Shown here piece after piece: positions 13,964-41,313 of a stretch of DNA of 64,000 nucleotides. The notes under the pieces were generated by a model that searched no databases, had not been told where the DNA came from, and saw only the letters and a program-made list of their open reading frames with translations. Position 1 is the stretch's first letter. Each line of letters starts with the position of its first letter. The position numbers and the translations under genes were made by a program. This DNA comes from Phoronis australis (Eukaryota; Animalia; Phoronida), in NCBI GenBank assembly GCA_002633005.1, contig NMRA01000282.1:271748-335747 (forward strand), in the 5' to 3' direction.

Positions 13964-13995
13964 CATTTGTTCCTGATGCATCTCATTGAGTTCCA

Positions 13996-14608: not shown

Positions 14609-14941
14609 AATGACTCACAGAGCACGTGACTCTACGGTTTCAATCCATGATAAAGGGTTCTAATGATCTCATTTGCTTCATTACGGTTCCATTTTAGATA
14701 AACCATGTGTGATCAGACCATCGGTTGTGAAACGAATAATAATGCAGGGATCAGAATTATACCACATCTATCTGAACTATATATGTATATATATTTATAT
14801 ACTTTAATTACTTTCTTAAATAGATGAGCTCAACAGCTTGACATACTTGAGGAATGACAGTATACACTGGTATTTACACAGACATGCACTTTACTTGCAA
14901 CCTCAGTCATCTACCATGATACTAGTAGCGTGTTGTCATTG

Positions 14942-17144
14942 TCAGTCAAAAGGTACAATAGATGGACATGTGTTAGTTAGAGCACAGGCCACCTGTACAG
15001 CTTTGTCAAGTGTTGTGAGACTTGTTATTTCATCCGACTGTAACAGAGTTATTGGTGCGATTGACTGCAACATTGTATACTTCTGCCGGACCACACCAAT
15101 AACTCTTTCTACATGAATTCGAACTGAAGCAATTTCACGAGATTTCTCTACTTCGTACCTGGTTAGCTGGGCTTTTCTCTAGTAAATGCTGGGATCTCCA
15201 ATGACCACCATATAATCCCACTGACTCTCGAATGTCAAAACCTCTATCTGCTAAGACTACATCACCGGGACCGGGATTAATATTCGATAAAAAACCAGAG
15301 TTTTCTGTCAGGTGCATGTCACTGACACGGCCCCCCATCCCTTTGAAATGAAAATTATTGCACCCTGAGGAGCAATGCCAATTTAATACTTCATGGTATT
15401 GTGTGACTTGTAATTGGAATATGTGGTATTTCTGGCACCAAGGTCCTTTGACCGTTCAATGAATACTTCAAAGCAATCTATTACTACTACACATTTAGGA
15501 AATGTTTTCCTAAAACACACTGGGAGTGACTTTCGGAGACAGTGGCGTTCTGGCCAAAATATGTTTAGAGGGACAAGTCGACAGTGACAAACATCAATAA
15601 CACTAATAAATATGCGTGAAATTGTGGATGAACTTATGTTAAACCTGAACGCAAGATCCTGAATATTCAGATTAAGTCTTAGTCTCATCAAAGTGATGAC
15701 AAACTGCTGAAACTTTGTTACGGAGTCGAAGTTCCTCAAAAATTTTTTCACAACTGAAAAGTTAATCATTAACAACTGGTAGTTTGCTAAACCGGTACAA
15801 AACCGGACTTTTTCATCACAGTTCACAAAATCGTGTTCATCCAAACTCAAGTTTTTTTTCATTAAGTAACACGTTTTCTTGGCGCAAGCTCAAAACTTCA
15901 GCATTCAGGATTTCGTTTTGTCTGTGCAGATTCGAGATTTCGGCATTTGCAGAATTGACAACCTCCCAGTCACAAGGTACTGTGTTAACAGATTCTTGGT
16001 CATTTATTGTAGTCACTTCAGAGTAAGTAGTATCTTCGCCCTCGTCATTATTTCGAGATAGGTCCAACAGCTGTTTGCAACATCCCTTTCTCTTTTTCTG
16101 CTCGGCGACGCTAGTCTGAGTTGCATCTTCGTTCAAATGCAGAGAGTGCTTGTTTTCTTTTCTCAACTTGGGCTGCAGAAGTGTGAGCAAACACACTGGG
16201 CATGTAGTCGGGACAAAGCTTGTCATCTGACTTCTTTCTTAGAAAATAATGCACCAATGAAACTATTCCCACATACTACATGTGCTAATGTGTGTTTGCG
16301 AATTGCGGAAATTAATAAAAACATGACAATGCAAAAAACAGAGGCCAGCCTTTAAAAAACAGTAATGAATGTGCTTACTTTAGCAGCTGATTAGTTCCAA
16401 ACTGCTATCGATAAATTATTTCAGTAATGATTACATGTGCTGAGAATACACATGTGAATTACAAGAAGCATCCAAGAGAAAAATTTCAGGTCAATGTTTC
16501 TCTTTACTACTCCAGGGAACAATATTCCTGGGTACGCCTTTTTACAATTGCAACAACTCGCGAAAGTTTACCGCTTAATTACATGTTATGAGGTTTGTAA
16601 AATTCGGTACACTAACTAGTTTTCAGAAGTAAAGCAAATAAGTAAAATACACGGAGGAACAGAGAAGTGTCAACAAAGAAAGGCACGGACAAGTTTTAAA
16701 TCGTCTTTTAAGTTTAGGATTCCACATATTAACTTTTACGACATTAATCGGAACTTAAACCTGGGCTTGCCTTCAGTGATATGACAAATATGGCGCCCTA
16801 GCTTATAATCTAGTAGAAGCCTGGTCGGACAATGAGGAGTCTCGAAGAACCAAAGACAACGGCAGAAATATTAACTAATTATGCAAAACTGAGACAGGGT
16901 GGAAGCGGTGGAAGCTTCTAGTCACGATAAACTCATCGATTACAATAATATTATTTACCTGATTGAAATGTGCGCTACAGAGCCTAGAGTACGGTGTAGG
17001 AGTCCAGTTCTGACGACTCACTGCTGAAATCCACCTATTTCGTCGATCTGGCTCAGAATTTACACTAGGGAATCTATAAAACGACAAATTCTTGTCCCTG
17101 GACTGGTTGTTGCTGCAACCTACCGCCACACAATAAATAGGCAT
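14942..17144 (-). pseudogene. THAP - HTH - DDE_Tnp_4 (Harbinger/ISL2EU) transposase, 2 exons
   Basis: Exon 1 16959-17144 MPIYCVAVGCSN..FYRFP..W..LCSAHF. Exon 2 from ~16238 contains [52 protein letters not shown] and ends CPSIVPFD*. Frameshifted. Confidence 0.92.
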
Positions 17145-18745
17145 GACTAAAGAAATCGAGGAAAACAAACACAAGCGTGCAACAACAACGACAGCTGGAC
17201 GTTTCTACACGTCCAACATGGTGAACACACAAAGTGATGACATCACTTGAAATACCTTAATATGGTCAAATTCATCGGCTATGCGCCGTACTTTATGAAT
17301 TGCGTGCCAGTACCTCTCAGATTTTCTACTTAGGGGTTAGAACGCCTGAATTATGAACATAGTAATTTCTACTATGCATACACCACAAGGCATGGGGATA
17401 TAATAATGTTGATCCATTGAAATCTATTTCTATGAGTATGTGGCAGCACCTCAATTGCCATATACTTCAGACCTGTTTCAAAAAGCTGAAGTCCAAATTC
17501 CTGACTAATACAATGCAGAAAGCAAAGCAGCTATTATTTAACTGAAGTATGCAAAGAGTTGGCTTCTAAGAAGGAAACTGGCAGTTCAGGAAGAGTCCTC
17601 ATTTCCATCTGATGGCATGGCTACAACTAATGTGAGAGCTAGTCTTTGAAGGAATGCATTTGTCCTAGCTGGAAATGGGCCAAAATTCAATAACACCAAG
17701 TACACTCAGGAACAGCTTAATTAAGCAATTACACGAAGAAAATGGTGGGAGGGTAAGAGGTACATTGCCTGGTGGTGTCAAGGGCTGATCAACAAAGAAG
17801 TATTATGTCTTGTTTTACAAAAAAAGCAAGAGTCACCCAAGTCGTAAAGCAGACATTCAGGCGAAGGTGTCCAATAGTTGACTTAGAATTCATAAGATAT
17901 CCTATGTCAAAAAGAAAGCATTCACATAAAAATCTCAAACCCAGAGAAAGACATTGCACAGTGAATGTTGCCATGTTTAATGCTATTCAGGATCGTGAAA
18001 AGCATCAAAATCTTAGTAGCATGATGTTTGAGTGGAAAACATTGTCACCTCAAAAAAGGCCACCTGAAAAAAATATATGAAATTTTCTGGTGGCGACTCC
18101 TGAGTGGAGATTGCTTTAAGGACAGTTGACATACTACATCATTACTGGAGGCAGGGGAGTTTGCAAAGTGTTTAAAGATGAGGAGGGGGGTTGGCTCTGG
18201 TGAGGTAATTAAAGACTGAACAGGAAAGTGGGTAGTCAGACGGTGAAGACAAGCTGGGTAAAAGTAACCTAGTTTATTTGACTGAACTAGACTCCATGCA
18301 TAGATATTTTACTCCATTACATGTATATATTTAAGTATTGTGTGGTTTGTATATTTTATCTAGTTCTCCATTGAGGATGTCTTATAATAAATAGATATTT
18401 TCCATCATCTTTAAGTTATTACATAAATTTTCTCCATTTCAGCTTTGTCACTCACCCACTATTGGCATGTGTTTATGACAGGATTTCAGGGGTTAATTAG
18501 CTTAGGTGTTTATTGTACATGTTTAGTTTAAAGTTATTAAAAAGTTCCCACCATGACATTGTCTACCAAAAATGAATTTTATTAATACATCTTAAGAGAT
18601 TTAATAGTTTTTAGTATACCTACTGCTTAGAAAAAGCCAAAAATTTAAAAAAAAAATTCTGTTCTACGTAACGGGTGGATCGTCTCCGCCATTGTTGAAC
18701 TAAGGAGTCGAGAGGAAAGCTCGTGGGTAGCTGCCTTTTTCAGTC

Positions 18746-21129: not shown

Positions 21130-21946
21130 AAGTGTTTGTAATTGACAAGCGCGTTAAAGAAACTTATTCATCAATGGTCCATATTTCTGCAGACCAACTA
21201 CTTATCAGGAAATTTTAAGGAATCTTTCGCAAGAATTGCAGCAGTTGTTTCCTGGAAATCTTCCATCCAAAGATAAAGTATTTGAGGCAGAGAAAAAGAC
21301 TGCACTGTGTTTTCAGTCATATGTCGTTCCAGAGCAGACTTCTACAGGCTGGAAAATCAATCCTAAAAACCTGCTGAAAGTAATCACCACCTTCAGGTAT
21401 CCTTTTTTCTATGAGGAGAAAGATTCGATCTTGTTAGTTATGGGAGATGGTCGTGAGTTTGGCAAATGTCACAATACATACGTGGCACTTTCTGTAATTA
21501 AAGATAAGATAAGACAAAGCAACATGGTTTTGACTATCACAGTCCAAAAGAGTATTTTCCTGTTGCTTTAATCTATGAATCTGACAACAGAAATAATCTT
21601 GAACAATATTTCATGAAACCCATCCATCTGTTAATAGTTTCAAACCAACACCATCAAGCCAAATATTTAACTGCTGATGACATCAACAAGTTTGTGCACA
21701 CTTGCTTGGATTCTAGTGGCCGACCTAATCCTCTGTCTGCCCCTGTGTGGAACATTTATGGGGACAATACTCCCCAACAAAAACAACAATTTGCAGAAAA
21801 TGGCTTCTGAACAAAACTTGCACTCATTGTTTATAATGTCTAGGCCATACAGCATTTTTTCAAACATGGACATAACTAAAATATTTCAGTGCATTCTTCA
21901 CAGAGGTACGAAAATTGACGATAAGTTGATAAATTTACCTCTGTAA
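21130..21946 (+). pseudogene. Decayed transposase-like core (possibly Transib/RAG1-like)
   Basis: LPSKDKVFEAEK..GWKINP..LLVMGDGR..VALSVI..HSPKEYFPVALIYESD spread across frames. Family assignment tentative. Confidence 0.4.
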
Positions 21947-22289
21947 CTACTAAGTTCATCCATTGGCTGATTTTGAAGATATTTTGAGATACTTTGATGG
22001 TATTTTGCATAGGTGGCTACTAAGAAGATGATGACATCTTTATAATTTGACACTTTGTGGGCACCTAGTGGCCATTTTTATTACTTTTTGAATCTAGTAT
22101 TTTGCCATTTGCGGTGCACAATTCATACCCAGAGTTGCTCTGGTTTATATTTGGAAATTCCATGGTTATTACTTGTCATGTTTGCAGTGAACTCATGCAA
22201 TACCCAAAAGTTTTGCAAGGGAACACCTATGCAAGTAGCACATGATAGGCCAACACTAGAAAGTTGACTCTAAAGATGGAACAAACTTA

Positions 22290-23500
22290 AGCTTGATACC
22301 AGAGCAGAAACAATCTACGCATCATTCATTGAATTCTCCATACCACAAGACCTATGTTGACTGTAGCCTTGTAAAAATGTGTTTTTTGCAACTTGTATTT
22401 GCACCTGTTTTGGATCTCAGTGAAACAATTTGAATGTGGATTGTCTGTCAAAGAAATAAACTACTAGCAATGAACCAAACTCAAAACAACCAAATTGCAA
22501 ACGAAGTTGCACAGTGTGTCATGCAATTCTAAGAAGTATCCTCTGTCCAAGAATTCCACTGACAAAACTTTTAAATGATCCAAGAAAAACTTTAAACCAA
22601 GGTCACCAACATCAAACTCCAATTCAGGACAATTCAAGCATGTCTGTGACAAAAAGCCATTCAGGATCCTCTAAAGCATGATAATGAGAACCTGCGATCG
22701 TTACTACAGAAACCAGATTTTCAGAATTCAAAGCCATGTTCAAACAACAATATGTGACGAATGAGAGGAAAAGAAGAAACAACGTAAATGATTCAGTTTC
22801 AAGCACGCCATCCGATAAGCGTGTGATTTATCCTTACCCCATTGTAGATTCAAATGCTGGGGTCTTGTTGAGAGTTATGTCTCATGTGGTCCCATAAAGA
22901 AAATACAATTATTATACAATACACAGCTATAGACATTCTAAAGCAAAACCTAAATTTCTCGGTGATGTTTGCAACTCAATTTGTACTCATACGGTTAGTG
23001 ATAAAGACAATGTTTTATTTTTCATAAGACAGAAGTAGTATCTGGAGATTGATCAAGGTGGACTGACGGCATCAAGTAGATCGCTGTAATCATTTTGCCT
23101 CTACCCTTGAATCAACATTTAGAAACCATATTACGAGCGGAATTGAGGATAGCAAACTTAAGAAGCATTTTTTGCTTAAGTCAAGGAGAAGTGTGTAAAT
23201 TCAGATTATGTGAGCTGTGTTGCCTCATACATTTTCCACGTAACCTGCCTTTCTGATCTTCTAAAACAATTCCCTTGCAGTTTGCTCTGCTCTCATATGG
23301 ACACAGTAATCTTATTATTGCTTAATGTGTTTTATCTTCTGATGATGGTGTTTCAATACACGCCGAAACATGTAGTCGGTTTAAATTCGTTGCTGTTTTT
23401 ATTTCCATTACCTTCAGGTAATGGCGTCTTTCTGTTAAGTGTAACAATGTCCCTTTCCCTGAATCAGCAGACAGTGTTGATGATTGTTAATAGTTCCATC
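22290..23500 (+). mobile_element. Penelope-like element relic
   Basis: Degraded coding-like sequence ending in a pLTR-like region that carries a minimal hammerhead core. Boundaries approximate. Confidence 0.5.
23331..23385 (+). ncRNA. Minimal type I hammerhead ribozyme motif
   Basis: CTGATGA (23339-45), T, stem II GGTGT/ACGCC, GAAAC, ATGTA loop, GTC cleavage triplet. Stem I is weak. Confidence 0.65.
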
Positions 23501-23599
23501 TAAATTACAATGTTATTAATCTTGACTGTATGTTTACAGACTGTGAGTGGGGTTTCAGCACTATGACAAGAACTAATACAATGCCAAGAAACCTGTTCT

Positions 23600-24120
23600 G
23601 ATGATAGTCAGAACTATAAGCACATGGCCTTGTATTCAAGAATACCCCATTGACATTTTTTTCCCAAGAAATGCCCATGGGACATCAATGGGCCTTTCCA
23701 TAAAAAAGTTCAAATTCCAAGAAAACCTGTTAGGAAAAAAATGCCACTAGGGGCACAGCAGTTTTTGAGCTCGTGAAAATTTGGCACCTATCCTCCTCTA
23801 CTTGACAAAGATATTTGATGCCAAATTTCTTTCAAGTGGTTTGGAACAGAGAGAAGCAGACACCAGACGGACGAGTTCAGTAGTTTTAAAAAAGTTGACG
23901 AGTTTCCTCGAAATAGGTCTTGCTTGCTCGAAATTACAGCAAAACTTAAAAAGGAAATTAGATGCAAAATAAACTAATCATTTGACAAGTATCGGGAAAT
24001 TTTTGCTTCGAAATTTCCTCGATTTTTGATCAGACGAAAAATCATCAACTTTTTTGAAAACTGCTTTGCGGAGATGACATCAATATGCACATACCTATTG
24101 TATACGTGGGTGCATAAAAA
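23600..24120 (-). mobile_element. HINE-like element fragment
   Basis: Hairpin atgcac..gtgggtgcat-aaaaa at ~24086-24120 and a gccactagggg core at ~23743. Left boundary uncertain. Confidence 0.5.
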
Positions 24121-24950
24121 CCATTGTGTACAAAAGCATTAAAATCATAAGCTCATTTTTGTACACTGTACAGAGACCTTATTTTTCATCTGAAATAACA
24201 TTCTGATAGGCCGTGTGCCCGTAAGACATCAAGCATTAAACATCAGTAGAGAAAAAATAACTTATACAATCTTGAATGTATTATCTGAAGAATCACCTTA
24301 TTAGCCATACACTAACAAGGTGGTTCTCATAGAACTGTGATTGACCAGTCACTCTGAGTGTTGCCGATCCACACAATGCTACCTAGATCTGATGCTACAC
24401 AGATCAGGATTTCCCCTGGAACTTTGCCAATTATTGGGACCATGACAAATACAGAAAATCTACAGACAGTCTATTCCAATAGTTGTGTGCACGGTAAAAA
24501 TTCTCTCGTTTGGGACTCAGCACACTGAAAAAAGGTTGGAGCTCATACCAAATTTTAGAAATAGGCAATATTGGCAGTCCAAAATTAAAGAATGACGATC
24601 GACATACGACCCTTGACCTCAATGTTAAACAATATTCGTAAGCATGAAATGTTGCATTGTCGGCCATTTTCTATAATTTCATGAACTGTCAGATCTAATT
24701 TCAGACTTCATTGATTCGAAATGTAATATTTGAGAAATTATGATGAACGACAAAATTGCCCACGTCCCAATCTTTAGAATCAAGAGAATTCAAATTTGGT
24801 TTTCAATATCTGTGTCCCAAATTTTAGAGACTACCGTACTGGATAACTTTTACCGTAAGCAGTAGACTTAACAGCAATAACAGGATAACGTGAATACAAC
24901 TTATGGACAAGATAATAATAAATTAGTTACTGGGAAATGCCATGTTTTAC

Positions 24951-25240
24951 TTACGGCAGTAGCTTTTTCCTGGTATGTTTACATTTGTTTGCGATGGCAT
25001 CCAAACACGTTTTCCACTCACTCTCGAAATCCAGAACTGAGTCTTTAAACTTAGCGTAGACACGAGACTTGATCTGCATAAGTTTCACAGTGTCCAGTTG
25101 TTGAAAATTACGATATCCCGTCGGTGTCGAGGATGCAAGCTCCTGCTGTGAGAAGGTCAAGTCACACAATCGCAGTGCATAACGTCGTGCAGTCAACGTA
25201 GTCGGTAAATGAGAACTCAACGCATCAGAAAAGTTAGGGA
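24951..25240 (-). CDS. BEN-domain exon A (phase-1 acceptor)
   Basis: Polypyrimidine..TTTCAG acceptor. Uninterrupted YALRLCDLTFSQQELASST.TG..QLD..KL..IK..V..F..W..C..AIANKCKHTR follows the BEN pattern. Ends at TAA, which overlaps a possible GTAAGT donor. Confidence 0.85.
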
Positions 25241-26981
25241 CTGAAAAACAAAAAAATACAGCCATGCACTTCTGAGAATAAATAACACATCTTTTTATAG
25301 TACGTTTGAGTGAAAGAAAAATTAAACTGAACCTTGAACAGGACTACCGTTTATGTAACTGCCACGGCAGAATAGAGAGCAACAATTCATAGAAACAGTC
25401 ACAGCCAATTACTCGTTTATCAATGCACTTGGGAATCGTTTGTTGACATTTCTGTCTTTTTGACTCAATTGTTCCATAATCTACAAAGAAACAACATGAA
25501 CTAATAAGAAACTAACAGCAAAAATTGGAACAAAGAATCAAAATGGCATGGAAATAAAAACTGGTTACTCATACATCGTGATTCGATTACAATTTGATCA
25601 ATCATCGCACTCTACACCAACAATTGAGCAGCAACAAACAAAAGATAGTGTGCAGCAACAATGACATAATTATCAAAGGTGCACAGTTCACAGCACACAT
25701 GCACAAATATGGCAGTTTCCAGTTCTCATAACTGTGCCCACAGACCTTCAGTCCAAACTCTTGTTACATAACAATTCAGCATTTACCTTGGTAGTGATGG
25801 CGGAAAGGGGTAATAAAACTGATACAACAGAGATTATGCTTTGCATTTGCATTGTGCGACTTGCTCAAAGTGTCACACCTCCAGTTTAAAGAATTGTCGA
25901 TACTTTTTTATAAAAGTCAACCAAAAAGATTAAAAATAAAGTCAGAATAAGCAGAATGTGCCAAGTTGAAAGGCACCATTCCCCTTTCAGGAGGCGGTTA
26001 CTATAAATGAAATTGTCTTAAATTTTGCTCGGATCTTTGCTAAGGTCACTTCTACACCAAACTAAATTACTTTTCAGACGGAAGTTGAAGTTATGAGCTT
26101 TTTCCACAATGTAAGTACAGTACAGCCACTGAATTATTAGACTCTCTCCGGTCTGCCTAGGCGCGACTGTAACCGGAGAAATACCGGAGAGTGAGGCGTG
26201 AATCAACCGTGACAGCTGGCGTGAGCCTAAGAGTGACTGTACCCGAAGCTTACCGCGAGTTAGGTGTGAACGAAGCGCAAGCCAGCCATGAGTTTCCCCG
26301 TCTTGTCTACAGTCGGAACAGTCTTTAATTGCTATCCCCACTCGTTTAGCGAACAAAATACTGTATCGTATTTTGAGTGGCGTTTCCCATCGCTAGAATC
26401 ATCTTGACTAGTACGCTACTTGACTAGGACACTATTTAAGATTTAATTTAGGTTTGTCTGAACACACTACCAAGAGGGTTTATTTGTCTTGAAGACAAGT
26501 ACATTACGACTAAATATATCGTCATTGTTTCATTCAAGTTAGTGCTTACAATTTAATAATGATTTTGCGACTAAGGATGTGTTTGTGTTATGCGTGTTTC
26601 CGTACGCAGCAATGGAGGCAAAATGTGCAATACTCAAAGTGACACGAAGACACGTTTAGATTATGCTTTATTATAATAAGTAACTTTGCATATAGATAAA
26701 CACCATAGGCCTAGTGGAGCTATGAAATATGAACAAAAAGCCCAGATCATCTAACAAACGGCAGTAAAATGCGAGCATGCATGCAGAAAAGAGTAATGAT
26801 AACACTATCAAATAAAAATACCACTAATGCTACTAGTAATGATATTACATTTTAAGTAATACTAATAGTAACTATAATAGTAACTGTACTAGTAACAACT
26901 ACAGTATCAACTTCATTGCAGAGACACAAGTACATGTACATTGTAGGCATACAAAAAGAAGATGTCTACACGAAGGAAATA

Positions 26982-27268
26982 CTAAAATCGGCCTTTAGCC
27001 ATTTCTCTTCTAATATGTCGGCATTTTGCAGATATGGCATTCAGACAGGCTTTCCAAACGGTGTCAAAATTGGGGACTGACCCACCAAAGCGCCCTCGAA
27101 CTTTTGACTTTATTTCCTGTAGTTTGCTACTGTTTAAAGCCGGAGCGCCGCGGAAGCCTGTAACCGTCCCTGAGGCCAATTCCTCACGGCTAAACAGCCG
27201 GTCTGCTAGGATGCCTGCGTATCGTCTAGCGGCGTGTGATGGTGGTAATTTACCCACGACGGAGTTTG
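26982..27268 (-). CDS. BEN-domain exon B (phase-1 acceptor, terminal), inside the Tc1-type element
   Basis: ATTTTTCAG acceptor. Intact YAGILADRLFSREELASGTVTG..LNSSKLQEIK..WKACLNAISAKCRHIR. 40/80 aa identical to exon A without gaps. Confidence 0.85.
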
Positions 27269-27911
27269 CTGAAAAATATTTGTAACCGCAATTATCATTT
27301 TTATTTGTATTATTCCATTTACTTAACGAAGTAAAACTTCAACGAAGTTATAGACGTTTATTATTTAATTACGGTCTACGTTATCCACTCTTTCTTAAAG
27401 TGATTAAAGTAATTAAAATAACCTAAACGGTTAAGAGGGACTCGGCCAACATGTGCTGAACGCTACAGTATCTCAAAGGTCAAATAAACAGAAACATCTG
27501 GTGCAAATAATTTTGTGGTTTTTGACGACCGGAGACTCAAATTCAGTGTATATGTAATCTACTCCAAACCCAGAGCCCATTCACGCAAGGGCCAGTGGGG
27601 ATGACCAAAAACCCTAGGGCGCACGATTTAAAGAAAAACAATGTGTGAAAGAGTACCATTTTCGGACACCGGTGCGTAACGCGCTTCAGACTATTTCGAC
27701 AACAAGAGGCACCTTTTAGTAATTGGGCTTTTTGCAGTCTAGAACTAGCTACTTTTATTTATTTATATATTTAAACTTCTTTAAAAGACTGGGTGACCAT
27801 TTCAGTGTATACACTGATTTTCAAGTGGGCCCACTCAGAAATAATTACATGAAGCAAAATACAGACACTGAATAACGCCTACTATCCAGTGGAGCACATG
27901 TAACTGGTCCA

Positions 27912-30405
27912 CGGAACTTCCGGGGCTAGTTCGGTCCCGGGACTAGTTGGGCCACCGTCCCAAACTCCGCAATTATATGTGCACTTTCAGCCTCAGTCAT
28001 TCTGAGCAATCACATGACTTGTACCACTACACTAAAACCACGCTGGTTGAAGGCGGAGTGTTTTTCTTGATCTGACAGGCAACGATTGGTTTTAATCCAG
28101 GAGAATAAACTTTGGAGCTTCACTCGATTCACTGCTGGCCGTAAGCCATGAGCATTGATGTAAAAATGTTTTGTTCGTGGGTTTTAACAACAGCTTGCTC
28201 TTCAAGACAGGCCATGCGTTTCTTCAGATTCCTCAGTGATTGATGAGGTAATCATGTGTTTCCATTTAGAGCTAGCGGGGCAAATTGGGCCCTTTGACAT
28301 GGGGCTAGTCTGGCCAGAGGCCGAAATTGCCCCGTTCACTTTACTTGTTTACCTGATATATCATCAATTAATGTTTTTTTTTCAGGAAATTTAATGAGCA
28401 GCATTTATTATGAAATTGCACAAACTCATCTTAAATATGTTTCTTTGGTAGCACATTGTCATTTTGAAGGTTTGTGAACAAAAAATATCATTTTTAAATG
28501 TAAATATTGTGGGCACTAAAAATGTGAAAGTCTTTTACTCTATGTCTGATGCAAAGGCAGAACGGGTTAAAAGTAAAGCCTCTGGCTTGTGATCTACATT
28601 TACCGGGTGTCGTCTGGTCTTGAACATGTAAAATGCCAAGTTTTAATTATCATTTGTTTGACATTACAAGAGAAAAACTAAATCAAGAGAATCAGATACT
28701 CTAAGGGCAGCAGTCAGACCATCCCACCCTTCTTGATTTATTCTTGAGCACATTATAAGGAATACTTTATAAATGGAGCACCTGCTAGCTCAAAATGAAC
28801 CGCTCTTCCATCAGGCTGGATGACAGTTGACAACTTCACCATGTTTCTTCTGCATTTCGTCGAAAATGTCAAACCATCAAATGATGCTCCCTTACTCATT
28901 CTTCTTGATAACCACGATTCACATCTATCCATCAATACCTTGGACTCAATTTACGAGGTTCAAGAGTTAGTGCTCATTACGATGGGGCAGTTTGTAAGAA
29001 CCCAGAATCGCCTATCCAACCTGAGCAATCCCGAAATCAGATTCAGCAGCCCGTGATTGTCGATAACCAAGGAAATGAGTGGTTTTCGTCACCCATGGGT
29101 CTGTTCATGAACATTACATTCACTAGAAAACATCTTCTACAAACTCCTCATTGTACCAAATCATTTGCTGAAGATTCAGTTCGCAAGGCCCTACCTCATA
29201 TCATTAATAACTTTCCTGAAAGTGATTCCCAAAAAAATTTTGCCCATTCGTTATCCTCTGAACAGTTATAAATTATTTTAGTTTGTTTGAAAGTTATGAA
29301 CTTGAGTGCACTATTCCCCACTGCTCTGTGAGTAACTATTTTCGATAATCTTTCCAAAAGTCTTTTTATAAGTAGTTTTAAGTTACATTATCACCTAATT
29401 GTATAATTATGATTATCTGTATATTTTATTTTTTATTCTTTGGTGGCTCCGTGGTCAGCGGACCCTTCGGGTCTTTCACAGTCTCCATAAGAGTATTACT
29501 AAATTTGTATTAATTGTATTTTTGTTGTTACGTGAATAGAGTGTTTTACTAGTATGTACTACAGACTACAGGCAGTGAGACCACACCCAACAGCTCCACC
29601 CTGCAAAACCACAGGTAGAAACAGAAAACGGAGAAAATCGTCCATTCTCACCTACACATCAGAGAAAGAGGCCTTGAGAGAACAAGCTAAGGGAAAGAAG
29701 AAATCTATGAGAAAGCTTGCTGTTGACACAAAACCAAAACAAAAAGAGAAATTGCCATTCCCATCTTCAGACAGCCAGTCTGAATTAACAGGAGTGTTTT
29801 GCCTCGTTTGTCTAGAGCCATATTTTAACAGCAGGAGTAAAGAAAAGTGGGTCCCCTGCGTTGAGTGCAAAGGGCAAGCCCACAAGGAATGCGATGACAA
29901 TGGGATGCTGCCCTTCTTTGTGTGCCGCAGCTGCAACTCAGATGAGGACTAAAGCAAATACGTTTATACTCTCACCTTGTTTACTTTTAATAGCTCATTA
30001 AGTAAAAAAGTAGCATTTGATCATCAGTTTAGTAGGTGAAAGATTATGATACTTGCGAAGTATTTTTAATAGACAGTTGACATTCAAGCCCTAGTTCTTG
30101 TGTAATTTACGGTCCTTTGGGACAAATAAACAGGCATACACCAACACAAAATTTTGCAAAAATGTGTTTTTGTTCATTTTAAGAGTACTGCAATGGAGGC
30201 CAAACTTGCTTGTTGGGCCCCCGAAAGTGGACATGTTAAAACGAAAATTGCTACAAGACTGGTGCACTTACATCGCTTAACTTTGCACCATATATTGGCT
30301 GACAGACCGCACTTCCTGCACAGCGCTTATGAATGAACCAGCTTAAACAGTTTCCACAATATCGCACTTTTTACAAAAAAGGGTTGAACTAGCCCTGGTC
30401 TCCCT
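27912..30405 (+). mobile_element. pogo/Tigger-like element (DDE_1 plus C-terminal PHD) nested in the Tc1-type element
   Basis: Imperfect TIR core ccggggctagtt / aactagccctgg. SGWMT..F..FL.HF..LLILLDNHDSH at ~28760-28940. CLVC..WV.C.EC..AH.EC..FVCRSC at 29554-29952. Confidence 0.8.
28950..29540 (+). mobile_element. Non-LTR (LINE) 3'-end fragment inserted in pogo
   Basis: Interrupts the DDE_1 frame. Has an RT C-terminal-like peptide (TRKHLL..AEDSVRKALPHIINNFP) followed by an AT-rich tail. Confidence 0.4.
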
Positions 30406-31441
30406 TAATTTAGACGGTTAAAATACAGATTTCCCCTATTCATCACTCCATTAGAGGTATGACTTCCGAGAGACGAATTTCACGCATTTAGAGTCTGAAT
30501 GTCAAAAAGGAAAATTCCCGAGTCCGAAATTCACTCTGATGATCTCACTTACGGCCAGTTTTGAAAAACGTTTTAGGCCTAAAGATAGGCACCTCGGGGG
30601 AAGGAGATCGGGATTTCAGGGATTTTGACCTTTTTACGTTTTGCTGGAGTGAGAGTATCCCTCCTGGGCCCGAGTACATTACGGCGTTTTCCTGTTGCTC
30701 CTAACTTGTCTGATTCTATAGCCCAACAACAAGTTGGGAAGTTTACCCCTGTAGCCAATATCTTATACGACTGATTAACTCCATGCTGGCATTTATGGTT
30801 GGAGGGCCAGCTCTCTTTTGTTCCATAAGTCTTCTAATCTCCAATAAGATCGTATCTACCCTGACTGGGATGTGCTGTTAAAAATTAAAGTTAAATTATA
30901 ACATATTTGAACATAAATCAATATCATTTCTGACATCTTCATCAAATGGTGACCATGTGTAGTTTTTGAATCGCCAAACTCGCCCAACTGCAACCGAAGT
31001 TACGACAATCTATTCTTTCCGAATACACCAATTCACTCTGGGTTTGCCTGTGTTTACATGTGGTCTGCCATAACCCTGGTACATAATTGGCCTGCCTGTT
31101 GTTATAACAGACAAAAGAGTGTGCTTGGCAGTTAACAAAGAAGCTATATGTTATAATAGGCTTACCGCCCCCTACCTCTGGTTAAGTCACTGAACGGGAA
31201 AACGCTGCCATGTAATAATAACCCCGGTGCAAAGGACTTAGTTGCATGGTGGCATGTGGACCTTTTCCTGTTACCGACTTTTCGCGGATATTTTTTCCAA
31301 GGATCGTACTTAGACCCTTATTACGGGCGTGCAGGTCCCCGTTTTATTTCAGTACTTACGTGTCACTACTTTTCATCTACTCACTGAAACTGGGGATGAT
31401 GTCACTTCCGCTGATTCTTCATGCATCAATTGGCTTGCCTA

Positions 31442-31935
31442 CGGAGCAGAAGAAATGTTCTCCCCAAGAGTGGATTCTGCACGGCTGGACTCTTGATCAT
31501 GAATTAAAAGACTTGGGTCAATTCTAGATAACATTCGTTTCACAGTTTCTGTCTCTCTTTCAAATTTGTCAATGGCAAATTCCACAATGCCCTTTAATTG
31601 ATTGGTTTCCTTCTGCACGTTAATCAGTGTTTTTTTTTGATGTCTCTTGCCCAAGTCAGGACCGACTCTCATGTTTCGTCTATGTTGCTGGAAGGGAATT
31701 GATCATCGACATGAGATGGTGATCTAGACCACTGGCTGTGAAGTTCAATGAAGCGTCTCCTCGTTGGCGTGTTACCGCCTATCACAGGGGTGCTGCTGCT
31801 GGTGACCATGGTTTGTGCTGCAGAGGTGTAGTGCGTCGGAGAATCCTGAAATGTGCTGGCAAAGCGAACCATAATTTCCTCGTCTTCAGATGAAGCCTCG
31901 AATGATGTGATTATGGAGAGAGAAGTGGGGGAGAT
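31442..31935 (-). pseudogene. Low-complexity/coiled-coil exon, probable upstream part of the Tc1 cargo BEN gene (disrupted)
   Basis: S/T/E-rich segment followed by coiled-coil-like VQKETNQLKGIVEFAIDKFERETETVKRML. One stop and one frameshift. GTAGGC donor. Confidence 0.45.
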
Positions 31936-32982
31936 CTACACGCGATACACTCTGTATTGCAAACTTGAAACTGATATACTTATCTGCACTGCTTTATAAA
32001 GGAATTTTGTCCTACACACTACTTCCAGTGGTGGCCCCTTTAATAGGGATAAAGTGTGGTCCCAAAATGTACTTGATGTATGCAGAATACCAGCCGAGGC
32101 ATATTAGCCTATGTTTGTGCAAATTTAGTATTCTGGTTATTTTTATTAAAATCGCAACCTGGAGAAACTGGTTAACCATAACTTTTGCCTGACAACATCC
32201 TACTAAAAGTAAGTTGGGAGGGGGCGGGTGCGTGTGGCGTGTATGTTAAGGGTGAGAATGGCTTGATTTTTTTCTTACATATCTGTATTTCTGTTCTGTA
32301 TACCAATAAAAAAAATTGCAACTGTAAAAAAAAAAATCGCAATTGACGGTTGAATTCTGGTACTATTTTTAACGTAGCGACATGTGTAGCTGTTGCTCAC
32401 ATTCTTTCATAGACGGCCTCCATCCTCGCTGCGAAACCAGAGTCAGCGTTTGTATACAAATGTTAGGTAATGCATGCATGTACATTGCGTCTTGTCTATT
32501 TAGCGATATATTTGACAGTTTCTTGGTGGTCAATTAGACCGATAGTCAAACTCATACCGACAAAATCTCCCAAAAAGCGTTCTACTGTATGGACTAACAG
32601 AATGTCACAACCCTCGAAGCTGGCAATACTAGTGATGAAGATATACCCCTTGTCAACTATTCAAGAGGACAAATTGTCGGTCGCAGGTACAGGGATGGAT
32701 TGAACGATTATGACGAAGAACCACTGGCAGCTTTTTCAAGGTCTTGGAAAGCTTAACCCGTAAAAGTTAGTTCTTGCTGTTACGTGCAGTTTATGGTATA
32801 AATGGTACTCATAACATAACATGCATCACAATTATTTCTATGTAAAGTGCACCACTACGTGTTCCAAAAATTTTAACAGCCATCAACTTCTTGCATTCAA
32901 TATTCATTTGTGATGTATATCTGTTATTTTTTATTCTATATTGTGCTTGAAACCACTGGTGATGTTGTTTTTAATATTCAGA

Positions 32983-33090
32983 TACCGTTTTCGCCGTAAT
33001 AACCGCCCATGCCCCTATAAGCGCCCCCCACGCGTTTTCAGACTTTGCTGAAATAAGTGCCCAGTCCATGAACGTGTACATGTGAACAAT
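32983..33090 (+). repeat. End of a TA-CCGT (pogo/Tc2-like) element; inverted copy at ~46634-46740
   Basis: taccgttttcgccgtaataaccgcccatgccc..gtccatgaacgtgtacatgtgaa matches the reverse complement of 46634-46740. Confidence 0.7.
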
Positions 33091-33212
33091 GACGTACCTA
33101 CAGTCCTAAAACTCGGCTACAGTAACGTCTTCCAATTTATCAAAAAATTTTTACACGGGTCTTCTGGACCACCAGTGGCACTGCTACGTACATATTTGTT
33201 TCCTGATTTCAG

Positions 33213-33623
33213 TTGCATGTCTGGGCCGGCATCAGTATGTGTGGAGCGACTTACAGATATCGTGATTTTTGAAGGAATTATGGATTGTTTTTTGTACATC
33301 TCAATACTACGAAAAGCACAGCTGCTATTTATTGCAAGGAAGTATACATCAATACTGGCCAAGAAGTTTATGAGGGACCAAGTGATAAATTGGGTGCCTA
33401 CCCCCCTGAAAGTGCAGACCTCAACCCAATTGAAAATGTCTGGCATGAACAAAAGGAATACATAGGAAAGCACTCTAAGCCAACCACCAAGCAAGAGCTC
33501 GTCAATGATATCCAAGCTTTTTGGAAGACTGTCACTCTAGCAAAATGCAAACGATATATTTGCCATTTACTTAAATTTGTTCCTGAAGTCATATGCTGTA
33601 ATGGAGCAGTCACTGGATATCAA
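33213..33623 (+). pseudogene. Tc1-family (DDE_3) transposase, last exon relic
   Basis: TTTCAG acceptor, then HVWAGIS..IVIFEGIMD..INW..PPESADLNPIENVWHE.K..KPTTKQELV..FW..GAVTGY. The QDNDPKH segment is missing. Confidence 0.9.
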
Positions 33624-35972
33624 AGCACAATTAAAGTTGCCAACATTATGATTGCATACCTTTGGCACTGCAGACACAATGAAACAAGTGTTATTTCTCT
33701 ACCTGTCAATACAATACCATTTGTCATCATCTTTCACATTTTACATTCAACTACATGACTTCAAAATTATGAAGGACCACCAATTAAATTTAAAGTTACA
33801 AATTGTCTTTGTTTTTTGATGGTCGTTATCATTAGTGACCAGTGCATGTTCTATGTGAATTAGCGCTCTTTAACAATTATAATGACGTGGCTGAATAAGA
33901 AACTATTGAGCATAATTTTTTTAATTGTTTTGATAGGTATAATTAATTCACTTGTACAGTATCTTGCACACAGATTTATGTTGTTATGTTGTAACAGTAT
34001 CGTTGGAATTACGAGTCTTATATTAGATATACACTATACACTGTGTATTGTATTTCATTTAAGTTCATACTATTAGATTAAATTAGTGCCAGTCTTGAGA
34101 ACTCAGCTTTACTCTCTGGTGCCTGCCTCATCAGTGGAAGAAAATGTTTATACATTGTATGACCTCAACAGAATATAATGTACATACGTGCAATTGATAA
34201 TTTGTCTGTCCTTGGTATGGTTTTCGAAGTTTAACATTCAAACATGCTGCTTTCGCTGACACATGCGATATTAGGGGGTTGTTTCATAAAAGTCACCTAC
34301 GACAGAAATTTGGTCTGATGCTCCCATTTCATCGCCTGTATCAAGTTTTAGTCAAGTACATTTAATTATGAGTGCATCGAAAATGAAAAAGTAATTTATG
34401 AAAATTTTATCGGTAACTAGCAGTGATGTGTGTATTCTCATAGACTTTTGCTCATGTGAGGTTTAATTATTTTTTAGAAATCATTACTTGCAGCGAAAGA
34501 CCAAAATTTCTGTCTCAAATCTTAAGTCACTTCAGAAAACAGACCTCTGGACATTACTTTTCACTTATATATAATTACTTGTTTTTTTTAGATAAACTAA
34601 TAAAGAATGTTAACACGCGTGTACATGGCGGAATTATTCAATTGCCTTCACGATATGAAGGAAATAGCATGTGAATTCTGAGCACATTTATCCCAAGTTC
34701 CAGCATCATGCAGAGAAAACTGATCGCGCCCATGCATTTGACAACAAATGACCGCTATTATTATTATTTCAGCGAAGAAGTACCCCGGGGATACTGTGTA
34801 CTCATTCGAAATGCATGTACTACGGAGATGGGGCTACAAATAATTACACCGCACTACGGATTGAGGACTTTTAAGTCAACACATTTGCTCAGCAGTAAGG
34901 GATGGGGATGTCAGATGGGCGGCCTATTGAAATTTTCTGTACGCCAGTGCAGTGCAAAAATTTACAGAGTGACGCAATTCTTTCACAAATGCGTAGGCTA
35001 TTTTTAGGGCGAATTAACTATATACAGCTGTGACAAGTTTCAAGGAGTCCACAGCCATGTAAAGATGACTCTGGATACAGGGTCGCGTTTATTCGTATAT
35101 ACTCATCGTGATTACTGTACATGTATGTCATTGATGGGACTGGCTTTTAAGTCGTAAATTGAACATGAACATGAAAGTGTAACACAAGACCAGCTGAAGG
35201 AAGACGTTTGTATGAACAACACGTGGAATTACAGAGTTAGTCGGAACCCAAGTGTGATAGATGACTGCTTACAAAGATACTCTATAATATACTATAATAT
35301 CCTTGCAACTTGACCGAAACAACAGTCAGATCAAGACGTTACATGTATTTTTACTGATTAGCCCGGTGCCCGACCATGGTTACCACAGCTACCGAAGGCG
35401 AGAGGAAAGCCTGAACGAGGCGTGAGGAAGGCGTTAACTAAACCGGAGGTAAGCGTGAGAACTACCTGGAGAGTAAGCGTGAGATGACCGTGACTGATTT
35501 CTGTCACGCCTGCGATCCGGTTAAGCTCCGGTCTGGCTGGGCATGAGGTAGCCCGGACGAAGTCTAATAATTCAGTAGCTGTACTGTAGCATGATTATAG
35601 GCATGGCCACAGGGGGACCCACACTGAGCAATAGACCAACCCCAAAATACCCCATGACACTCTACATTCTATGTCATTTACCCACAATCCCGCATACATC
35701 TGTCCAGCCCTTATCCTGCTAACTCAAACACTGCTGTGTTGGTCATTACATCATGTGAAAACTAATATTTCATCCGTCCTTTTAATGCCAGAGACATTTA
35801 CTTGAGGTGTGATACTGACGCCAGAAAATTGACGAGCATGATGGATACCAGTGGGCAATAACACCTCAAACACGACCAACATGTTGAAAGCTAAGCTACT
35901 TATACACTGGATTTTCCTACTTGTGGAAAAAGGAAGACATTAATTTGAGAGAAAGCGATTAAAGTTGCTTAC

Positions 35973-36170
35973 GATCTGTCGCCGAGGTCGTTCCCACCAG
36001 CTTTGAGGTACATGATGGGGTAGCGTTTACTTGCACTGGAGGGGTACCCTGTGGTCCAGTTCCCATGGTGACTGGCACTGGCTGTATCTGTTTCATGTCC
36101 ACTAGTTGTTTGAGCAGACCTCTGATAGCACTGACATCATCTTCAAGACTGCTAGACTCCATGAGGATGG
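35973..36170 (-). CDS. Host gene L, last shared exon (phase 1-1), coiled-coil-like plus linker
   Basis: Acceptor ttttgtatcccag, donor GTAAGC. Encodes ILMESSSLEDDVSAIRGLLKQLVDMK..TTSATD. 198 nt with no stops. Confidence 0.75.
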
Positions 36171-36852
36171 CTGGGATACAAAAGGTGCAGTCGTATTATG
36201 TGACTACTTCGTACGGGTCAAGTCGAAATAAAAGCTAACACAAAGTAGGATCTTCTGAAATTGGCATGCATTGTATGTCTTAAAGCCAGAAAACACTGGA
36301 GATTGAGCAGTACTGATGCCACCTAATGTTTGGCAATGGAATCAAGTTTAATTCCAACCTGCAAGCAACCCTATTGCCTTCGGGAAGGACATGCAGATCA
36401 TCACCTCAGCAGGCCAACTGACTATTGTCTACAACACTCCTCAGAAAGACCTGGGGTGAAAAGTGACTCAAAAATACAAATCCTGGGGCTTGTGATATTG
36501 TAAAAAGTAAATAATCTTACTGTGTTTCAATCACTTGACTTATGATCAGAGTCTCAATTCTCTCAATCAAGTAAGCAACAATATAAGCAGTATTTACAAT
36601 ATCCAGAAACCTGGTCTTACTCTACACAACTATTTCCAAAAAAACTGGTTTAACCTCAACAGAATAAGGTACTAAGCCTCTGGAAATACCCAAAATTCCT
36701 TTAAGTAATGAGCCATTACTGCTTCACTGTGATGTGACAACAATTACGAAATACCTTCATTCAAGTATACAGGAAAGAGAGCGCAAGACAAAGTTACTGA
36801 CTTGAGCCTTGAGTCCCTTTCTATGAAACAGGCCCCACAAATACTCAACAAC

Positions 36853-38376
36853 AGCAACGCAGAGCGTTGAAATGCACCCACAATTGCACCGCATACGGTA
36901 TCCTTCTAGGGTTGTTTATTGGTACCATTAAGTGGCCAGTAGAGGGCATATATGTAGTATGTTGTACTCAGCAAAATGGAAAGGCATGGTCATTGTCTCC
37001 TCAATAGGCTAGGGGCAAAATGTGAGTAATCTTCATAATACAAGCACATCCTATACACCAGTTGCTTAAAGCACCACAGAAACATAGAATTAAAAACAAA
37101 TTTACCAACATACGAGATTAGCACAGCATTAGAATGCCAGAAACAAATTTCTACTTGGAACTTTTCCTTCACAGTCACGAAGTAACACAAAGTATACACC
37201 TGAAGACCTATGAAAATACAGAGGTCAATGTAAAATACTAAAATTGCCACTAGAGGCAAACACTAAAATTGCCACTAGAGGCATACCGGTAGTCAGAATC
37301 ATCCTAAAGTCGTCATCGTCCGTTGTCAACATCACATAAATACACTTGCTAAATTTAGTAAAGATCCTGCAAACGGTTTGGGAGATACAGCCATGGGCGC
37401 AAAAAAACAAAACTGCCACTAGGAGGCGCCACAGTAGTCCAAATCGTCTGAAAATCATTGTCAGCTGTCTTCCTTATAGTAAGCACATACACGCCAATTT
37501 TCACAATCATCCTTTGAGCGGTTTGGTTGATAGAGGGGTGGACGCAAAAATACAGACTCGAAAACAGTAAAAATGGCCACTAGGTGGCGCAAACTACGTC
37601 GAATCCATCTGAAAACAGTAGGATAGCGTCATCTCACTAATAGGTGCCTACATACCAAATTTCATGAAAATCCGTTCAATACTTTTGAAGATACAAAGGT
37701 AAGCGTAAAAAACTAAAATTGCCACTAGGGGGCACACCGGTAGTCGGATCCGACCAAAAGTCGTCATCTTCCGTTGTTAACATCATATAAATATACTTAC
37801 ACAATTTGTAAAGATCCTGCGAACGGTTTAGGAGATACAGCCATAGGCGCAAAAAAACAAAACTGCCACTAGGAGGCGCCACAGTAGTCGAAATCGTCGG
37901 AAAATCATCGTCAACCATCCTCTACATAGTAAGCATATACATGCCAATTTTCACAATCATCCTTTGAGCGGTTTGGTTGATAGAGGGGTGGAAGCACAAA
38001 AACAGACTCGAAAACACTAAAAACGGCCACTAGGTGGCGCAAACTATGTCGAATCCATCTGAAAACGGCAGGATAGCATTATCTCACTAATAGGTGCCTA
38101 CATACCAAATTTCATGAAAATTCGTTCAGGACTTTTGAAGATACAAAGGTAACCGTAAAAAACTTAAATTGCTACTAGGGGGCACACCGGTAGTCGAATC
38201 CGTCCGAAAGTTCGCACATGCCGTCCCATTCATGAATGGAACATATGTGCCAAATTTCATGAACGTATGTCAAAGGGTTTTGGAGATAGAGCAGCGGACG
38301 CCGCCCGGATGGATGGACGGATGGACAGAGATGACGGCATAATGCGTCCACATATAAATATGTGGGCGCATAAAAA
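36853..38376 (-). mobile_element. HINE/DINE-1-like non-autonomous Helentron with central tandem repeats
   Basis: 5' T-run plus hairpin atgcgcccaca..tgtggacgcat, a GTCC/ATCC microsatellite, 144-161-bp subunits in a 450-bp higher-order repeat, a 3' subTIR tgtgggtgcat and the palindrome caacgc..gcgttg. Confidence 0.85.
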
Positions 38377-39498
38377 GTCAAGACCACATTTATTACTGTA
38401 AGAGATCAAAAGTTGGTATTCTTGACATCAGTGCCCTGGGTTTAATATTTGAACTCGGACTTGACAATCAACCAATAGCATACCGTATGATTCAAGTACA
38501 AATTTATACGAAACGTAGGATTCAACTGGTCAAGTTTCGAGTACTTAAGAGAATAAACCCCAGTCCCAGAAGTCGTCAGTTAAAAGTATGATGCTCCTTT
38601 ACAAAATTTTCAAAAAACACCTAAAACATACAAACCTTTTGTTACTTGCGTCTTGGAGGTAGAACTTTCATTTGGCAAAGGGTTACTGAGAGATCTATGA
38701 AGAGAGATCTACAATGAGACATATGGACACAAACCAACATCCTTAAGTATTATTGTGCAACGTTTCTGGCCTTTCTTTTCATCACAAATATAACTTTTCA
38801 GTTACTCATGAAGCACATCAACTACCAACACTTTAAACACTCTCATGAGATGAGTCTCCAAAATGACCTGGAGTCGTTTCATTAAACTGACTTAAGACTT
38901 AGAACGAAATTTAGTCTTTTGCTCACAGTTCACGATTGTTGAAAACAGGTTTAGCCAAGTAATTATGATTGCATCACAGTCTAGAAATAAATTATAGAAA
39001 TCATCAGTTACTAGTAAATTTGTGTATATTCTCAGAAACTTTCCACTTGAGCTTAAGTGAGATATCAGTGCCAGATAAACCATTAAACTAATTAAGCTCA
39101 GGGGCACCACACAACATAGAGGGAGGGGTGGAAGTTGTGCCAACCGGAGGAAGAATTGGATTGGGTCCCGAGAAACCTTATTCTGTCACTGAAGGTGATG
39201 TTCAGGAGAGCAAAATACCTGGCACTCTAACCTAGAAGGTAGCATCTCCGTGTTTATTATAGAGCTTCGATATTCATGAAAAACCAGTATGGGACAACAA
39301 TGCAAACTCACTTTGTCAAAGAATATTTTACCTCATTATCAACACTGTAGTGCAGCCGTATTCAAACACACTGTGCGCTCTAGCTTTTGGAAAACAATTT
39401 CAGTCACTGTTTTCATTCAAATTTGAAGCAACTTAAATGAACAAAGCCAGGTTGACATGAATCAACCAATCGTTGAGGTTGCTAGGAAACCGACTCAC

Positions 39499-40114
39499 TC
39501 ATTGGCTGTTAGTGGAGTATCCAGGTTGCGGTCACCACGCAGTGCTGGGGCCCTCCACCACAACTCTTCCTCAAGTGAAGTCTCCCCACCGCTCTCCTCT
39601 GAGCAGCCTTCCACAGGCTCTACCTTCACAACACTCATGCACAACGATGGTTGCGCCATCATCGACGCCTCGCCAGAATCCAGCTCTTTTTCTCTAGCCT
39701 TATTCACATCCGCAGTAAGTTTCAGTCGTGGCGAGGGTGTGGCAAAACCATCATCTCCTTGAGAAATCTGTAAATTTTTTTCGCGTACGTCACATTCAGC
39801 CTGTGTCTCCTCCACGTCCTCCATACGGTCGGCAGCAGCACCCTCTTCAGTGTCTCCAACACAAGTGGTCTCTTTTTCAGGTTCAATCAGAGACTCGCGG
39901 CAAGCACTTTTCAAATTCAGCTGCGTATTATTTGAGATCCTTTGAAACACACTTGGCGACTTCATGGCTTTGCTAGTCAGGAATGTTCGGCTAGCAGAAC
40001 GATACGGATGAATTCGATGGCCAACAGGGGAACAGGAGTCTGTACTTCTGTTCATTGATGTAGGCCACTTTGAAGGATGAATTACAGGTGATAGGGTGCT
40101 TTCTGTGGATTCAT
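39499..40114 (-). CDS. Host gene L, large low-complexity exon (phase 1-2)
   Basis: Acceptor ttcttctttag, donor GTGAGT. 616 nt open, containing HPSKWP, RIHPY and VKVEP. Confidence 0.8.
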
Positions 40115-40125
40115 CTAAAGAAGAA

Positions 40126-41313
40126 TAATAATCAATTAGCTAAGGGCAACAGAATTGGAAACAGGTATTTTGTTCCATTACTTTTTGGCTAACTTTATAA
40201 ATCCTTGTTACAGTATTCCTACATTATTTCGAGTATAATCTCACCTTCCACCACAAACAACAACTTCTCATTCAGACCAGTGTGCAAGCTATTGTTTGAG
40301 GCCAGGCTCTACAAGTTTGCTCGCCAGAGATTGATTTTACAGCGTAATTGGTATAAATTAAAAATTCACCTCGTCAACAGAACGCAGCCTCAACAACATA
40401 GAAGCAGAGTGCCAACATGCGTCCATGTACATTGCAAATGCCAAAAATATAAAGGGTACCAATTTTCCTAACAATTCTATGCACTAGAGAGAAGCGGTGG
40501 TGTACTTGAAAATGAGCCCACAGTGTACATTGGTAGTCATCCCAAAATTGGCAAAGATGCTCCTAGTAGATCTTAAAATTGACAGTAAGAAAACTAAAAT
40601 TAACGCAAAGGGGCACTGCAGCAGATGAATCCTTTCAGTAACTGATGCACGCTCTCCTGAATGAACAACATTTGTTATGCTTCGCCANAAAAAAAAAAAA
40701 AAAAAAAACTTGCTGTCAGAGCAACATACTTGGCGGAAGAATTCCGCCAAGTAATAATCAATTAGCTAAGGGCAACAGAATTGGAAACAAGTATTTTGTT
40801 CCATTACTTTTTGGCTAACTTTATAAATCCTTGTTACAGTATTCCTACATTATTTCGAGTATAATCTCACCTTCCACCACAAAAAACAACTTCTCATTCA
40901 GACCAGTGTGCAAGCTATTGTTTGAGGCCAGGCTCTACAAGTTTGCTCGCCAGAGATTGATTTTACAGTGTAATTGGTATAAATTAAAAATTCACCTCGT
41001 CAACAGAACGCAGCCTCAACAACATAGATGCAGAGTGCCAACATGCGTCCATGTACATTGCAAATGCCAAAAATATAAAGGGTGCCAATTTTCCTAACAA
41101 TTCTATGTACTAGAGAGAAGCGGTGGTGTACTTGAAAATGAGCCCACAGTGTACATTGGTAGTCATCCCAAAATTGGCAAAGATGCTCCTAGTAGATCTT
41201 AAAATTGACAGTAAGAAAACTAAAATTAACGCAAAGGGGCACTGCAGCAGATGAATCCTTTCAGTAACTGATGCACGCTCTCCTGAATGAACAACATTTG
41301 TTATGCTTTGCCA
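40126..41313. repeat. 562-bp tandem duplication (40126-40687 / 40752-41313) around an N gap
   Basis: Near-identical copies at offset 626. The N at 40688 is followed by poly(A) and a hairpin. Confidence 0.9.

Follow-up and report, generated by a model that had tools for sequence, protein, structure and literature searches.

An alternative last exon of a Phoronis australis BEN gene lies in a decayed Tc1-type element that probably supplied it

The locus described here is found in a 64,000-nucleotide stretch of the Phoronis australis genome (GenBank assembly GCA_002633005.1, contig NMRA01000282.1, positions 271,748 to 335,747), which we call the window and to whose first letter all positions refer. 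Its central part contains the 3' portion of a host gene on the minus strand, in which a shared exon is followed by two alternative last exons that both encode BEN domains. Exon B is located inside a decayed Tc1-type transposable element in the last intron of the gene, and exon A lies beyond the element (Table 1). RNA reads join the shared exon to each of them, and comparison with related elements suggests that exon B arrived as part of the transposon.

Table 1. Features of the element and of the host BEN gene, with window positions, strand and the evidence for each
Feature	Position	Strand	Evidence
Distal of the two alternative last exons (BEN exon A), beyond the element	24951..25240	-	RNA joint 35973 to 25240; Pfam and own hidden Markov model (HMM)
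TA target duplication and left 26-bp terminal inverted repeat (TIR), starting CAGTA	26116..26143	+	sequence; relatives L013, L018, L053
Left arm: short subterminal repeats followed by DNA common to the ~1-kb sibling; contains the 3' untranslated region (UTR) of exon B	26144..26958	.	DNA depth
Alternative last exon inside the element (BEN exon B), with phase-1 acceptor and its own stop	26982..27268	-	Pfam BEN; RNA joint 35973 to 27268
Nested pogo-type relic, ends approximate	27920..30398	+	Pfam DDE_1 6.9e-5; 13-bp inverted ends; Cys-rich PHD-like tail by eye
Nested very high-copy repeat, ends approximate	30680..31215	.	DNA depth 56,000-60,000; loose ends
Broken frame, Ser/Thr-rich and heptad-like stretches	31442..31935	-	translation
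Nested miniature inverted-repeat transposable element (MITE)	32983..33155	.	second copy at 46570-46736
C-terminal half of Tc1 transposase, with frameshifts and without the second catalytic D	33207..33620	+	Pfam DDE_3 2.9e-4; profile match
Right arm: subterminal repeats, right TIR (35561-35586), TA	35380..35588	.	likeness to left arm
Shared host exon (heptad stretch and linker)	35973..36170	-	donor by RNA; acceptor predicted; single-copy contig
Further predicted upstream exons	36798-36820, 38636-38694, 48478-48629	-	splice-site signals in the sequence
Large upstream host exon, predicted	39501..40114	-	minus-strand-only RNA depth 1.7-5.1; splice sites from sequence

Exon B matches the Pfam BEN family (PF10523) with 35.7 bits (E 9.8e-9), above the cut-off of 23.2 bits. 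Exon A reaches 22.2 bits (E 1.7e-4), just below that cut-off, and 81.9 bits with a purpose-built HMM. A profile made from A, B and their homologues matches the structures of BEND3 and BANP (E 6e-11 to 1e-5). The two exons are on the minus strand, their proteins are 44-46% identical, and each departs from the consensus at 3 of 19 columns. Their acceptors occupy near-identical positions and are both of phase 1, and each exon continues the frame of the shared exon. An initial annotation of the window had described an intact BEN exon within the element and a homologous one outside it, and the Pfam matches and open frames agree with that description. Sequence-specific DNA binding is known for the BEN proteins BEND3, NACC and Insv (PMC8887127).

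Splicing to both endings is observed in raw RNA reads from three samples of one study that carry the same species label (runs X5, X6 and X7; 18-19% of each run was read, over the region 21380-36679). Two joints leave the common donor at 35973 with GT-AG borders on the minus strand, and both remain in frame to a stop codon. The joint to exon B is present in seven reads (6, 0 and 1 in X5, X6 and X7) and the joint to exon A in five (2, 0 and 3), each therefore in two of the three runs. Matching-strand bin depths over the three runs are 4.1/2.3/0.5 for B, 0.6/1.5/0.8 for A and 2.5/1.9/1.2 for the shared exon. These joints bear out the earlier claim that exon B is compatible in orientation and phase with splicing from the shared exon. 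Minus-strand RNA runs on into the left arm (bin 26480-26989) in two of the three runs, and AATAAA is found there at 26672 and 26484 (minus), so the poly(A) site of the B transcript is predicted to be in the left arm.

Farther upstream, expression of the host region 39504-40160 is seen in RNA, and the joints are predicted. The predicted first exon of the host has no Pfam match, so that no BTB domain was found, and no ESM Atlas match of at least 0.9. Word-index protein searches, which are weak evidence, gave no match, nor did viral contigs. The stop codon of exon A overlaps a consensus splice donor (24945-24956, minus), and no AATAAA occurs in the next 1 kb. A further exon or a long UTR beyond exon A is therefore possible, and no such joint is among those listed. 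The exon at 48478-48629 (minus), where the BEN host gene is predicted to start, resembles by eye a ~50-residue exon at ~55500-55660 (plus), which goes with 58258-58937 (plus), so that two divergent genes seem to open alike. This exon has no Pfam match and scores below 0.9 in the Atlas, and the ending of the partner gene was not found in the window.

The element is bounded by 26-bp TIRs (26118-26143 and 35561-35586) that agree at 25 of 26 bases and have TA outside each. The likeness extends to 43 nucleotides at 86%, and comparison of the right arm with the left gives a z of 11. Single-copy contigs from DNA run X1 (24752-26141 and 35547-36875, depth 44-47) cross both junctions between element and host. 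The ends begin TA-CAGTA, and their first five bases are as in the complete relatives L013, L018 and L053. The TA-flanked repeats that had been proposed as boundaries thus stand. The proposed 9.5-kb size stands for the distance between the ends, but about 3.5 kb of the interior consists of unrelated nested repeats, and the element proper comprises ~6 kb. No empty-site joint is among the joints listed from DNA and RNA reads over the locus. The short motif GCGTGA occurs 15 times in the window (16 expected, hence not enriched), and 6 of the 15 cluster in the element ends; its likeness to a BEND3 site is a lead only.

A joint from 26958 to 35420 occurs in DNA contigs (depth 157) and in RNA reads of the other strand, with filler letters that resemble 35391-35424 by eye. 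It reveals a sibling of ~1 kb, present in a few copies, that has kept both ends and from which the interior was cut out. Because this short multi-copy sibling joins both ends, the TIRs belong to one element. The left arm shared with the sibling ends 24 bases short of the stop codon of exon B, and the sibling, the only other family member seen, lacks BEN. DNA depth over the left arm is 150-5400, compared with 40-60 for single copy, and reaches 1,500-5,400 at the outermost ends.

The plus-strand transposase relic noted in the initial annotation is present, although only its C-terminal ~150 amino acids are detectable (columns 184-333 of a 333-column profile built from 27 relatives). The relic contains two frame changes and a gap of ~13 residues over the second catalytic D, and is up to 62% identical to its relatives over 73 amino acids. 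Intact relatives have 34 residues between the second D and E (DD34E). In a tree of 73 columns, the relic falls, on a long branch, inside the BEN-bearing transposases (100/100 versus three outliers). The locus therefore shows two hallmarks of the IS630-Tc1-mariner (ITm) group: a TA duplication with TIRs, and a Tc1-type DDE/D transposase within the ends, the latter by the relic only (Pfam DDE_3, profile and tree). TLEWI elements (10.1101/656579), which are DD36E and lack TIRs, were considered and rejected, as TIRs are present here and the relatives are DD34E.

BEN is regular cargo of the Tc1 lineage to which the window element belongs. A motif derived from the relic identifies at least 119 metagenome loci, of which the 80 that came with flanks were counted and the 39 of at most 633 bases were not. 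The 80 loci were searched with a BEN profile of 32 homologues that excludes the window sequences, although the homologues had been found with B as the query. BEN occurs within 5.5 kb of the transposase motif at 35 of the 80 loci, and at 25 of the 34 where at least 2 kb downstream is present; the farther flanks of lineage loci contain a single BEN match in 165 kb. At 85% identity the 35 loci collapse into 13 clusters, and two related assemblies account for 19 of the loci; the 35 thus cannot be counted as independent cases. Both genes are enclosed by TA-CAGTA repeats in five elements, L013, L019, L066 (6.3 kb), L018 (8.8 kb) and L053 (~5.2 kb), and L013 and L018 have short repeats near their ends as well. 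Two loci, L007 and L073, are clearly back-to-back, with spliced BEN genes whose BEN is 3.5-4.0 kb upstream of the motif, and L011 looks rearranged. A literature search that included PMC7325037 and PMC11601247, but neither subscription papers nor repeat databases, showed no publication that connects BEN with Tc1 elements.

Element-borne BEN genes open with small conserved N-terminal exons (L071:2684-2917 on the minus strand, L007:1975-2190 and L073:1408-1600). The exon of L071 may resemble the N-terminus of BEND5. Gene layout and intron positions vary inside this single Tc1 lineage.

The nested repeats comprise a pogo-type relic, a very high-copy repeat that appears LINE-like by eye, and a MITE. 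Reads in all three RNA runs (8, 11 and 2 reads) skip 566 bases of the pogo-type relic at 28093-28660 and carry 30 other letters there, which we attribute to a transcribed deleted sibling of that element. Between the repeats lies what had been described as a disrupted coiled-coil exon. It is a broken open frame, as described, and is likely an upstream exon of the BEN gene of the element; it has no family match in a Pfam scan, and no RNA is seen in bin 31580-32089.

We assign a probability of about 0.7 to the reading that a decayed Tc1 element lies in the last intron of the host BEN gene, and that exon B, likely the last exon of the helper gene of the element, is now an alternative ending of the host. 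Comparison with the relatives indicates that B is probably native cargo, and thus of transposon origin. The left arm adjoins B, and the back-to-back relatives have BEN at a matching distance. No other BEN relic is detected inside the element, even when stop codons are read through, and no decayed BEN is present at the usual tail-to-tail place (33620-35400). The identity of B to element BEN domains (22-31%) is compatible with native cargo: among elements whose transposases are 50-69% identical, BEN identity ranges over 19-51%. The initial annotation had left open whether a transposon donated a BEN exon or the element captured one from the host. Donation is favored because the lineage regularly carries BEN. 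Exon A can be excluded as the source of a recent capture, because A and B are ~46% alike, hence different at over half of their residues, while point decay of the element is only ~5% (changes at 1 of 26 TIR bases and at 5 of 38 conserved transposase columns). The flanks of exon A have no likeness to the element (z -0.3 and 1.0) and no TIR pair. The kinship of A with B would be explained equally well by host duplication and by an older capture from a related element.

Several observations weigh against native cargo. The layouts of the 35 BEN-bearing loci are 28 tail-to-tail, 4 with BEN downstream on the same strand and 3 with BEN upstream on the other strand, and the transposases nearest to the relic (L070 and L071; 89/84, unstarred, a weak tie) belong with tail-to-tail elements. 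The closest sampled relative of B is A (46%; next 38%), and the two have the same splice phase and two common departures from the consensus. A BEN tree of 85 rows, made by quick search only, gives A with B a support of 58 and does not settle the origin. A tree of 36 rows picked from the 85 places B weakly (81/62) with the group holding L007 and L073, and in that set A and B as a single clade are not rejected (p-AU 0.32). A phylogeny of transposon-borne and host BEN exons had been proposed as a check, and these trees fail to decide either way. Depth over B is ~63, which relative to the 40-61 of unique bins is about single copy, contig depth being a rough guide; no second BEN-bearing copy was seen, nor by read depth a family of near-identical B copies. 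The sole other member seen, short and multi-copy, is without BEN, which goes halfway toward an outcome that the initial annotation had named as contrary to its reading, namely that other copies never carry BEN. The middle frame has no significant match to the relatives, scoring below shuffled sequences among 5279 ORFs, as does the shared host exon. Junction reads are few and from a single study, with none in X6 although X6 covers the exons, and neither joint is present in the contigs of X8.

Much of this would be expected if A and B were old alternative exons of the host, formed by exon duplication, and transposon DNA surrounded B later, through capture into an element or through two insertions whose inner halves were lost, the sibling being derived from such a composite. 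A as the best match of B, the same phase and near-identical acceptor position, the clade that is not rejected, the roughly single copy of B and the minority layout of the window all fit such a history. However, it requires that the usual BEN of the lineage was lost without trace and that another BEN exon landed inside the same ends. Moreover, the left and right arms join at a single point in the sibling, with filler like 35391-35424, an outcome that two independent truncations would rarely produce; we consider this history unlikely. Far more improbable is that the two TIRs are separate short MITEs to which the transposase relic is unrelated. The ends are indeed much more abundant than the interior, but the sibling copies join both ends at the 26958 to 35420 joint, which largely refutes this idea, and the ends start TA-CAGTA like those of complete relatives of the same transposase.

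A different alternative accepts the same origin, and is compatible with it, yet holds that the B isoform arises from an exon trap without selection: the insertion would be young and would divert transcripts, and the frame of B would be intact by chance. The mild point decay fits such an insertion, and in a simulated neutral model the probability that the frame of B stays open is 0.17 at 5% divergence and 0.03 at 10%. Intactness of the BEN exon alone within the element had been taken to hint at selection; the other genes of the element are indeed broken, but at a probability of 0.17 that argument is weak. Use of B at levels like those of A (7 versus 5 joint reads, with the bin depths given above) is the better hint of selection. 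Two observations speak against the exon trap: B and A are joined to the shared exon with similar frequency, and B departs from the consensus no more than A does while both other genes of the element are broken. We regard the exon trap as a serious possibility, though less likely than not.

On the preferred reading of B as element cargo, the ancestral element would have been ~6 kb before the nested insertions, with transposase and BEN genes back to back. Its insertion, at a TA of the last host intron, would have placed its BEN gene in the sense of the host gene, and the 5' parts of both element genes would have been lost afterwards. The phase-1 acceptor of B may then trap the host donor in competition with that of A. 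When B is chosen, the mRNA would end inside the element, with the left arm giving the poly(A) signal; when B is skipped, A would be reached. The two predicted proteins are identical except for their last ~95 residues. Given the sequence-specific binding of BEN domains (PMC8887127), the two isoforms would probably recognize different DNA targets. A helper BEN protein might be expected to bind the end repeats of its element, so BEN B is predicted to bind the short repeats in the ends, and the B isoform might be drawn to the many short copies of the family.

In Drosophila, the transcripts of mod(mdg4) and of lola have common 5' exons, and their alternative last exons code for distinct DNA-binding modules. 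Unlike those genes, the host gene has no detected BTB domain and only two endings were seen, one of which is still within transposon ends. A close parallel in architecture is CSB-PGBD3, in which an intronic DNA transposon provides the host with an alternative 3' terminal exon that is spliced in frame, and in which short nonautonomous copies of the family are likewise scattered in the genome (Newman et al. 2008, PMC2268245). There, a piggyBac transposase was captured and has been conserved over 43 Myr, whereas here a BEN exon of probable Tc1 origin replaces a homologous domain. The host-transposase fusions KRABINER and SETMAR, described from tetrapods and involving transposase domains, are similar in their birth by alternative splicing, the coexistence of parental and fusion transcripts, and the gain of a DNA-binding domain (10.1101/2020.05.07.082677, whose main text contains neither "BEN" nor "invertebrate"). 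The window likewise has an in-frame transcript that joins host exons to coding DNA of probable transposon origin, beside the parental transcript. It is not a strict member of that class, because the captured part is BEN, probably from an accessory gene, and the transposase relic is antisense and dead. As to a splice site present in the ancestral element, the sibling has no copy of B, and a crude acceptor scan of the relatives was uninformative and missed the acceptor of B itself. The element resembles Tc1 (DD34E) members of the ITm group in its TA duplication, its TIRs starting with CAGT and its DDE_3 match; the spacing of 34 residues between the second D and E is that of its relatives, the second D being deleted in the window copy. 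An ITm element is typically 1-3 kb long and has a single ORF (10.1101/656579), whereas the lineage of the window element is 5-9 kb and has a second, BEN-coding gene. PIF/Harbinger elements also combine a transposase with a DNA-binding helper, a MADF gene, that hosts can adopt; they belong to another superfamily, involve a different domain, and are domesticated as whole genes and not as a spliced last exon (PMC9710019). Coral CMITEs (PMC2872659) are piggyBac-related, and hence not relevant.

Several other features of the window were observed. The host intron contains, at 36847-38376, a repeat with a period of ~450 bp and very high DNA depth. RNA over it reaches a depth of 900-1,600, on a single strand, which marks an abundant family with strand-biased transcription. 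YqaJ, PHD, HTH_Tnp_4, DDE_Tnp_4 and THAP matches occur in 11600-17200, which is probably an ISL2EU/Harbinger-type element. At 48892-52290, 135-bp inverted arms (90%) surround a 200-amino-acid Cys-bearing frame (51141-51743) with no Pfam match. A 4.2-kb tandem duplication at 94% occupies 1-6716, and the near-identical duplications at 40126-41313 and 53907-54983 are beside single Ns and may be assembly artefacts.

We regard the locus as a real, expressed event that functions like known host-transposase fusions but probably with an accessory gene. More speculatively, Tc1-BEN elements might be a standing supply of plug-in DNA-binding tails, with serial capture in which A (perhaps also the shared exon) is older and B younger. 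Tentatively, too, the B isoform might be aimed at the dispersed ends of its own family, and the gene might be a transcription factor with variable last exons caught in the act. Known fusions involve capture of the transposase. Here the captured part is likely a helper gene, and through it two BEN domains alternate behind a common protein head. If true, this would be a route to BEN factors and to genes with variable DNA-binding tails, observed while the ends of the donor are still visible.

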